From assembly GCA_965140585.1 (NCBI GenBank), contig OZ223265.1, forward strand, positions 320,001-384,000: 64,000 nt of DNA, in the 5' to 3' direction. This document shows positions 12,686 to 14,072 of the stretch, in pieces (position 1 is the first letter of the stretch; the number at the start of each line of letters is the position of its first letter). The notes beneath the pieces were generated by a model. It worked only from the letters and a program-made list of their open reading frames with translations. It did no database searches and was not told the DNA's origin. Source of the stretch: Spirochaetia bacterium. GTDB lineage: Bacteria; Spirochaetota; Spirochaetia; UBA9216. A program made the position numbers and the translations under genes.

Positions 12686-12723
12686 TTCAACTCCACTCCA
12701 CCGTTTTTAGTAATCACCTCTGC

Positions 12724-12756
12724 AAAAAAAAAGCAGAGTCTGTAAAAAGACTCTGC
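12724..12756 (-). terminator. Attenuator terminator in the aminotransferase leader
   Basis: GCAGAGTCT-TTTTAC-AGACTCTGC followed by T9, about 40 nt upstream of the aminotransferase start codon. Confidence 0.85.
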
Positions 12757-12814
12757 CATCAGCTTCAATATTAACCGGACCGCGAGCCTTTTATAAAGAC
12801 TGCGGCGAAATATG

Positions 12815-12892
12815 TCAGAACCTGTTCAACCCCGCAGTCAAAGTAGCTGCGGCCGCGGCGGATATATTCTTGTTTAAGATTGATTCCAACAT
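12815..12892 (-). CDS. Alanine-rich leader peptide MLESILNKNISAAAAATLTAGLNRF (25 aa)
   Basis: ATG at 12892, TGA at 12817-12815, five tandem Ala codons GCC GCG GCC GCA GCT at 12859-12845. Lies between the promoter and the terminator. Confidence 0.75.
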   Translation of the reverse strand: MLESILNKNISAAAAATLTAGLNRF

Positions 12893-12898
12893 ATTGAG

Positions 12899-12927
12899 AA
12901 TGTACCGTCAGTCAGTGTTTATGTCAA
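12899..12927 (-). promoter_or_regulatory. sigma70 promoter giving a leaderless leader-peptide transcript
   Basis: TTGACA-N17-TACATT; the leader ATG lies 7 nt after the -10 box. Confidence 0.8.
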
Positions 12928-13058
12928 GGGGGATGATATTCTGCGATTATCATCCCGGCACAAAATCATAGATTTTCTGCGAAACCGAACTAATAAAATT
13001 GACAATCGCTTTTAACCTGAGTTAATTTGTCAGGATTTAATTTTATAAGGATTATTAT

Positions 13059-14072
13059 ATGAAAAAAAAAATTAAAACTTAAAGCTTTTCTGATAGTACT
13101 TGTCATTACTCTATTCGCATTTTACAGCTGTGATGGAATCACTACAGCAAACAGCGGTATAACCGTAACAAACCTGTCACTGAATGATACTGAGCTGACA
13201 GTTAAACTTACATCTACAGCTCAGCTTGCAGCAACAGTTGAGCCTGAGGCAGCTTCAGAGATAAGCCTCATATGGGCCACTTCTGATGAAAGCATCGTTA
13301 CCATCAGCGATGACGGAACCGCAACAGCGGTTGGTGCAGGAACTGCTGAAATAACAGTATCAACTACTGACGATTCTTTCTCTGCATCGGCGAGCGTTAC
13401 GGTACTGCCCATTTTATATGGAGTCAGCAAAGGAAACAGCAGCCTGGGAACAAGCATCCTTTATGAAATTGATTCAGAAACAGGCGAACAGCTTGCCGAA
13501 ATTGGTGATACCGGCTACTACCTTAACGGGGTCTGGTTTATGATAATGATAACGGAAAACTGTATGGAACTACATCAACTAATGATACAACACTCTCTTC
13601 CGGAATTGTAGAGGCCGGTTTTCTTAATCCGGCATTCGGACCTTCGGGTACTCTTTACGCCTGGAGTGAAAATACAGATGTACTGGTTACCGTAAACCCG
13701 TCAACCGCAGAAATAACAGAATTTGAATCATCCGGACTTTCAACATGGACACATGGTATGGATTTTGACAGCAGCGGCAATCTATATCTGATTAATCCGG
13801 AACAGGAAAATGAATCAATCGATGCTGTAGATATATACAGCATCAACACTTCCACCGGTGCTGCAACATTTGTCAAAAAGATAACAACAGATACCACCCA
13901 TGTCTATGCTCATCATGGAAAATTCAACCCTCTGACCGGATTTTTCTGGGGCATAGATAACAATTCCGGAACAGAACGTTACTTCAACATACTGGATGTA
14001 GACGCCGGAAGCAGATCATCAACCGCACAGACTATCAACAATCTGCATTCCATAGCTTTCAGAAGTAAATAG
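13059..14072 (+). pseudogene. Frameshifted lipoprotein with Ig-like (Big_2) domain and beta-propeller-like C-terminus
   Basis: ATG followed by A10 gives TAA at 13080. With A9 it reads MKKKLKLKAFLIVLVITLFAFYSC (lipobox) then LAATVEPE...WATSDESIVTISDDGTATAVGAGTAEITV (Big_2). A second shift at G4 (13528-13531) joins the 13758-14072 ORF. Confidence 0.8.

Follow-up and report, generated by a model that had tools for sequence, protein, structure and literature searches.

The gene for a 433-amino-acid aminotransferase in the 64-kb stretch of DNA analyzed here (the window) is preceded by a short open reading frame (ORF) harboring a run of alanine codons and by an intrinsic terminator, an arrangement which raises the question of whether, and by what means, this leader governs expression of the downstream gene. 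It is very probable that the element represents a ribosome-mediated transcription attenuator which senses alanyl-tRNA. The features on which this proposal is built are collected in Table 1.

Table 1. Features of the leader region and of the aminotransferase gene that follows it (positions in the window)
Feature	Position	Strand	Remarks
-35 hexamer TTGACA, sigma-70-type	12922..12927	-	sequence match
-10 hexamer TACATT	12899..12904	-	17 nt past the -35 hexamer; ATG 6 nt on
Leader-peptide ORF, 25 aa, without Shine-Dalgarno sequence	12815..12892	-	ATG at 12892
Five tandem Ala codons (putative sensor; segment 1)	12845..12859	-	partners when untranslated: segment 2 or 4
Segment 2 (A), core GACUGCGG	12829..12839	-	inside codons 18-21; core invariant in 8/8 family loci
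Segment 3 (B), core CCGCAGUC	12795..12807	-	partners: segment 2 or 4
Segment 4 (C)	12778..12791	-	partners: segment 3 (protector) or 5 (antiterminator)
Segment 5 (D)	12746..12760	-	5' arm of terminator, 3' arm of antiterminator
Segment 6 (E)	12732..12741	-	3' arm of terminator
U9 tract of intrinsic terminator	12724..12732	-	nine T in the sequence
Shine-Dalgarno-like GGAG, twice, of the aminotransferase gene	12691..12699	-	sequence
433-aa PLP-dependent class I/II aminotransferase, NCBIfam PRK06855	11384..12685	-	AlaA-like active site

The TTGACA-N17-TACATT promoter with the ATG 6 nt behind it, the 25-codon ORF with its five tandem Ala codons, and segments A to E with their U9 tract were all found where an earlier note on this DNA had placed them, and the pairings A:B, B:C, C:D and D:E were each computed to be energetically feasible. 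The chain of mutually exclusive pairings described in that note is upheld, but the five segments from which it was built are too few: because the Ala codons (12859-12846) themselves pair with A or C, the leader is composed of six segments, numbered 1 to 6 in Table 1. Its Ala residues are specified by codons 12 to 16 (GCC GCG GCC GCA GCT), with a further one at codon 20. Constrained folding returned energies of -11.6 kcal/mol for helix 1:2, -15.6 for 2:3, -14.1 for 3:4, -13.5 for 4:5, -15.6 for 5:6 and -14.1 for 1:4, and the terminator hairpin (12757-12732) comprises 10 pairs, including a closing G-U, ahead of the nine T residues. Taken alone, the promoter-like sites (2 in a 1-kb region versus 2.2 in shuffled sequences) and the terminator matches (1 versus 0.7) are at chance level; the leader as a whole folds with a z score of -4.06, and none of 200 shuffles was equally stable. 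No Rfam covariance model matched at its gathering score within the window, the leader itself yielding nothing other than a chance snoRNA match (E 8.6), and the leader peptide has no match in Pfam.

A PRK06855-type gene (E <= 1e-100) is present in 67 of the 401 genomes of the class, and the removal of two which have no upstream DNA left 65 orthologues, the present locus included. Their upstream regions were searched for ATG-started ORFs of 10 to 45 codons with an Ala cluster, terminators being scored additionally. Failure of the Ala run to persist in relatives had been set beforehand as grounds for abandoning the alanine reading; the run is in fact conserved at the amino acid level, an Ala-run ORF being found upstream of 52 of the 65 orthologues and a terminator as well in 49, in counts to which related genomes do not contribute as independent samples. 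The same detector directed at every other residue identified 0 to 2 of the 65, while the Ala detector applied to the reverse strand identified 10, GCN runs being nearly palindromic. As a control within this genome, 3,843 long ORFs yielded 24 Ala-run ORFs, just one of which, that of the present locus, is followed by a terminator. A search of the 401 genomes for the promoter-ATG-GCN pattern gave 84 matches; in the 30 of these loci that were inspected, each short in-frame Ala ORF followed by a terminator stands ahead of a PRK06855 gene, and a wider regulon may exist among the others. The run itself is 3 to 8 residues long and starts at residue 11 to 17 in 51 of the 52 leaders, its codons being GCC (96), GCA (88), GCG (80) and GCT (19). 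The residues preceding it are freely variable, and nothing apart from the Ala run is conserved across the 52 peptides.

The manner in which these leaders are initiated is suggested by the spacing of their promoters. A TTGAC motif lies 35 to 37 nt ahead of the leader ATG in 41 of the 52 cases, and the 17/6 promoter geometry of the present locus is identical in all eight loci of the six-segment family to which it belongs. Shine-Dalgarno-like motifs precede 4 of the 52 leader ATGs versus 51 of the 52 main genes. From this promoter geometry, the leader mRNA is predicted to be leaderless, with its +1 on the A of the ATG. Where the ATG was set solely by the promoter, all 41 of the 41 leaders have their GCN run in frame with no intervening stop codon, the chance expectation for frame being one in three per locus.

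At 13 of the 65 class orthologues, no leader was found by the detector. Three of these (L112, L113 and L117) retain the promoter, the terminator and a short ORF in which Ala codons are scattered, and in four (L121, L122, L129 and L143), the promoter is placed immediately at the ATG of the main gene. L112, L113 and L117, together with L019, belong to AT-rich relatives and have the appearance of degenerate or less sensitive versions. L115, L118 and L041 possess Ala-rich ORFs for which no U-tract terminator was detected, and which may be relics or translation-level variants; in L118, a promoter sits on the main ATG as well.

The earlier note had also suggested a search upstream of orthologous aminotransferases for further Ala-run leaders, and such leaders do extend to 12 loci in records with deltaproteobacterial or Desulfobacterota titles. 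These were obtained from a wider set, consisting of the 80 top-scoring matches out of 565 across all species genomes, with sufficient upstream DNA in 77: an Ala ORF is present in 22 of the 77 and a terminator in 21, the remaining 10 of the 22 being spirochaete titled and mostly from genomes already counted. In this set, no leader was found in 55 of the 77, and none was detected among those best 80 of 565 in Nitrospirota, Desulfomicrobium, Desulfoluna, anammox, patescibacterial or archaeal records. The 12 Desulfobacterota-type leaders (L043, L044, L046, L049, L050, L051, L055, L058, L062, L069, L072 and L080) differ in make, as several are led by a Shine-Dalgarno sequence, some contain two Ala clusters, and some end in two terminator-like hairpins in tandem. 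In a protein tree built by a quick method, with many open forks and with partial genes left out, leaders occur in two clades, one composed mainly of spirochaetes and the other deltaproteobacterial.

The RNA structures are conserved together with the peptide. All eight six-segment family loci, i.e., the present one and seven relatives, can form the five consecutive helices with their spacings kept, and segment 5, although its sequence is not the same in the two genera, preserves both of its pairing partners. These helices were tabulated sequence by sequence; MAFFT misplaces segment 3 in two rows. Most other leaders are made up of four segments, namely, the Ala codons, an antiterminator arm and the two terminator arms. 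Covariation was assessed in 34 of the 41 nonfamily leaders with a terminator, two longer six-segment leaders, two long ones and three near-duplicates being left out. The earlier note had proposed a search for covarying stems in relatives, and the terminator indeed covaries across these 34 leaders: 94.1% of cells are paired, a figure which kinship inflates, and 7 of the 9 pairs have changed on both sides. None of 500 shuffles scored as high, and pairing fell to 32 to 52% when the arms were slid. In 33 of the 34, an upstream arm pairs with at least 6 of the 9 core bases of the terminator 5' arm, and in 33 of the 34, the antiterminator arm starts 7 to 15 nt past the last Ala codon, while in 17 of the 34, it ends directly ahead of the stop codon. 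Such spacing would be expected if this arm were left accessible by a ribosome on the Ala run and hidden by a ribosome at the stop codon. Two longer nonfamily leaders with extra segments (L089:156-316 and L111:1317-1486) branch off separately in the protein tree, and the six-segment layout may have more than one origin.

The behavior of the leader was modeled in nascent RNA of defined length, since equilibrium folding of the full leader cannot show switching: in the full-length RNA, the terminator stands at 0.89 to 1.00 for all ribosome positions computed. The ribosome was assumed to cover 6 to 9 nt past the A-site codon in this leader, and 9 nt in a set of 49 leaders. With nascent RNA ending after segment 5, a mask of up to 57 nt (A site on Ala12 to Ala16) placed helix 4:5 at 0.89 to 0.99, whereas a mask of 60 to 69 nt (codons 17 to 20) placed helix 3:4 at 0.94 to 1.00 and left segment 5 free; in ribosome-free nascent RNA, 4:5 reached at most 0.10. 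The modeled switch point (mask 57 to 60 nt) thus coincides with the end of the Ala run. The logic set out in the earlier note, whereby stalling on the Ala codons leads to A:B and C:D, is therefore reproduced by nascent-RNA folding (C:D at 0.89 to 0.99). Its counterpart, whereby translation past A leads to B:C and the terminator, holds for codons 17 to 20 but not for a ribosome on the stop codon, where C:D (4:5) is favored at equilibrium (0.63 to 0.95) and sequestration of the terminator 5' arm amounts to 0.78. Because the stop codon of this leader lies only ~10 nt before segment 3, a ribosome positioned there fails to free the terminator arm, and termination consequently needs either the early formation of 3:4 or the release of the ribosome. 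Classical attenuators likewise depend on folding order for read-through, and on early formation of the protector helix or on ribosome release for termination.

Across the 49 leaders, sequestration of the terminator 5' arm exceeds one half in 49 when the ribosome is on the second Ala codon, in 45 when it is on the last Ala codon, and in 8, including the present leader, when it is on the stop codon; in the other 41, the ribosome at the stop codon frees the arm. Sequestration in the Ala state exceeds that in the stop state by more than 0.1 in 44 of the 49, and the opposite order was seen in none. When the stretch between mask and terminator was shuffled, this shift was 0.16, compared to 0.56 in the native sequences, and the sequestered share was 0.57, in itself a high control value, compared to 0.85; only 29 of the 49 leaders exceeded all 12 of their shuffles for the shift. 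In the present leader, the antiterminated state (-29.1) has no advantage in stability over the terminated states (-29.7 and -31.2) and persists solely by virtue of a computed barrier of ~10.4 kcal/mol, an upper bound, over which escape would proceed at ~0.05 to 0.5 per second under assumed prefactors. Because the finished RNA folds the terminator in nearly every state, read-through must rest on the order of folding.

Based on these observations, we propose that transcription starts at or beside the leader ATG and that a ribosome would load without a Shine-Dalgarno sequence and translate the leader in the wake of RNA polymerase. During a shortage of charged tRNA-Ala, the ribosome would stall on Ala12 to Ala16, where it would occlude segment 1 while segment 2 stays accessible; in the model, helix 2:3 then forms and segment 4 captures segment 5 before segment 6 has been made, so that the terminator would be pre-empted and the aminotransferase gene transcribed. 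When alanine is ample, the ribosome is modeled to overrun segment 2, allowing 3:4 to form and 5:6, with its U9 tract, to terminate transcription. If no ribosome is present, the RNA would adopt either 1:2 plus 3:4 or 1:4 plus 2:3, and the terminator would again be free; OFF is therefore the likely default state. Compared to the four-segment version of most relatives, the present family has one additional relay pair.

Three other explanations of these data were considered. The leader might respond to stalling of another cause, such as nascent-peptide arrest, a ribosome-targeting drug with an effect after Ala residues or general translation stress, rather than to alanyl-tRNA. Any stall inside codons 12 to 16 would, according to the folding analysis, have the same outcome for the RNA, and both chloramphenicol and oxazolidinones stall ribosomes after Ala. 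Arrest peptides are, however, conserved in more than a single run of one residue, unlike the 52 peptides described above, and the regulated gene is that of an AlaA-like aminotransferase rather than a resistance or translation gene, which makes this explanation very unlikely. Marginally less probable again is that the attenuator operates in relatives and is leaky or nearly inert here, where either the terminator would win kinetically or a ribosome that lingers at the stop codon would allow read-through whatever the alanine supply. The dominance of the terminator at equilibrium and the preference for C:D with a ribosome at this particular stop codon would fit such a view, as would the existence of the degenerate leaders with scattered Ala codons (L112, L113 and L117), yet all six segments and their spacings have been kept here as in the seven family relatives, and the modeled switch point falls at the end of the Ala run.

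The GCN run could, alternatively, be no more than a structural RNA motif, as in a riboswitch or a protein-binding leader, in which case the ORF would be incidental. The run does double as a helix arm by pairing with segment 2 or 4, and GCN repeats are nearly palindromic, with 10 of 65 detections on the reverse strand. A purely structural motif would nevertheless sit poorly with a run that shares the frame of the promoter-defined ATG, with no stop codon, in every one of the 41 leaders, that accepts all four bases at its third codon positions and that lies one ribosome edge away from the antiterminator arm; there is, moreover, no Rfam match. This is the least probable of the three, and attenuation by a ribosome reading alanine codons is retained as the preferred interpretation.

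The identity of the regulated enzyme bears on the same question. The 433-aa protein matches NCBIfam PRK06855 over positions 1 to 433 of 434 with 657.5 bits (cutoff, 443), a family whose name carries no substrate, and scores 164 bits against the alanine aminotransferase model PRK08363, under the cutoff of 534. Among proteins of solved structure, E. coli AlaA (4cvq; E 7e-43) is its best relative, at 28% identity, and its closest named relatives are from spirochaete metagenome-assembled genomes (77%). Identity as an AlaA orthologue was rejected on the basis of the PRK08363 score, the 28% identity and a separate canonical alaA, an AlaA-like paralogue, elsewhere in the genome (G000:C2:105727-106692). 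Fifteen active-site positions of AlaA, most of them drawn from PMC4094517, were compared. Fourteen are identical (Tyr15, Ile17, Arg18, Ile40, Gly41, Tyr68, Tyr129, Asn179, Asp207, Tyr210, Lys240, Arg248, Tyr333 and Arg378), with Val in place of Leu at residue 276. Tyr68, Lys240 and Arg248 are further active-site residues of AlaA. The Gly19-Pro20 anchor of AlaA is absent from the protein, which also carries an insertion of ~25 residues near its C terminus. Annotation does not settle the substrate, as the source labels seen in two clusters (2 of 6 proteins) run from "alanine transaminase" to "aspartate aminotransferase". The proposed ON-when-scarce polarity of the leader, coupled with the composition of the active site, suggests the synthesis of alanine from pyruvate, and we consider it likely that this is the reaction performed. 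A downstream pfk gene was rejected as part of the system, being within reach in only 7 of 152 loci, many of which are too short to show it.

With moderate confidence, these findings may be extended to a general proposal in which a widespread family of classical terminator/antiterminator attenuators, hitherto without description, would read alanyl-tRNA and control an alanine-making enzyme, PRK06855 representing a distinct class of alanine-synthesizing transaminase; the leaders would be leaderless in spirochaetes and mostly Shine-Dalgarno led in deltaproteobacteria, and their extension from four segments to six would have occurred repeatedly.

Elsewhere in this genome, no Ala-run leader with a terminator was found at alaS, at ald or at the alaA paralogue. 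The alanine dehydrogenase gene (L188; G000:C1:162904-163998, plus strand) is flanked by a small divergent ORF, which we take to resemble a regulator of the Lrp/AsnC type. An Ile-rich 30-aa leader with a terminator and the same 17/6 promoter geometry precedes an ilvB-like gene (G000:C6:646552, minus strand), and a Val-rich 41-aa leader with a terminator precedes a second (G000:C1:310035, minus strand), both genes being recognized by their N-terminal sequence. The leaderless pattern opens 54 long and 39 short ORFs in the genome, alaS being among the long ones. Because such Ile and Val leaders and leaderless-pattern ORFs are present, both leader-peptide attenuation and leaderless initiation look native to this organism. 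A T-box-like match of 75.4 bits, below the cutoff of 93, was also noted (L184; G000:C9:498278-498598, minus strand) ahead of a gene that is thrS-like by its N terminus.

In its short ORF with tandem cognate codons and its exclusive helices, the element resembles trpL, hisL, thrL, leuL, pheL and ilvL of E. coli and Salmonella, and it shares with classical attenuators an intrinsic terminator, a predicted ON state when the amino acid is scarce and a downstream gene that is probably of biosynthetic type. It differs from them in that it would sense alanine, is predicted to be leaderless, occurs in spirochaetes and deltaproteobacteria, and has no homology to Rfam leaders. The his leader also has a six-segment layout and is the nearest to the Ala leader in this respect. 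The classical mechanism is summarized in 10.1101/834739, which also describes leaderless polycysteine short-ORF attenuators of mycobacteria, and leaderless trpL, leuL and ilvL of actinobacteria are covered in PMC8079986. As in those cases, a leaderless short ORF (here so predicted) with a run of one residue would control downstream metabolic genes; the mycobacterial Ms5788A acts on translation by hiding a Shine-Dalgarno sequence, whereas the Ala leader would switch an intrinsic terminator and involves another residue and another phylum.

The earlier note knew of no classical Ala-specific example. An Ala-rich leader, alaL, has, however, been proposed as an attenuator before alaS of Streptomyces lividans, a type which the relevant passage of PMC8079986 calls undescribed before, and an Ala leader as such is therefore not unprecedented. 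The S. lividans peptide consists of 22 aa with 6 Ala, only three of them in tandem, and the passage presents it as a proposal, without terminator or antiterminator analysis, conservation or test; it precedes the gene for alanyl-tRNA synthetase, while the present leader precedes that of a transaminase, and alaS of the present genome has no alaL-like leader. Motifs with upstream ORFs for Ile/Leu/Val, Cys and Phe appear in PMC11109978 and PMC8632094. The aspC motif of PMC11109978 was rejected as a counterpart, as it lacks an upstream ORF and is described as a junction of three stems immediately ahead of the start codon, hence a different element. Alanine is not mentioned in the parts consulted of PMC8632094 and PMC2965389, and no account of the element or of PRK06855 was present among the literature matches listed, although subscription papers or the supplement of PMC11109978 could hold one.

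If the proposal is correct, the element would constitute the first terminator/antiterminator alanine attenuator on a biosynthetic gene, and PRK06855, a family with no substrate to its name, would be assigned as a distinct alanine-synthesizing class of transaminase, the leader thereby serving as a functional pointer for the enzyme. Leader-peptide attenuation would be extended to alanine biosynthesis, to spirochaetes and to deltaproteobacteria, and would be coupled to leaderless initiation. The ~50 natural variants (four- or six-segment, degenerate or lost) would render its design rules directly testable, and the leader could provide a ready, genetically encoded alanine sensor.

Two further observations concern the region upstream of the promoter. 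A perfect 9-bp dyad with a 9-nt spacer (12930-12956) lies immediately upstream of the -35 hexamer, between two divergent genes; it is a possible operator, is present in a single copy in the genome and is partially duplicated in a relative of the same genus (L082). The divergent lipoprotein-like gene (13059-14072, plus strand) is broken across two frames, at an A tract after the ATG and again near 13530-13560, and is thus either a pseudogene or affected by an assembly error; its counterpart in the same-genus relative is one open frame of 361 codons.
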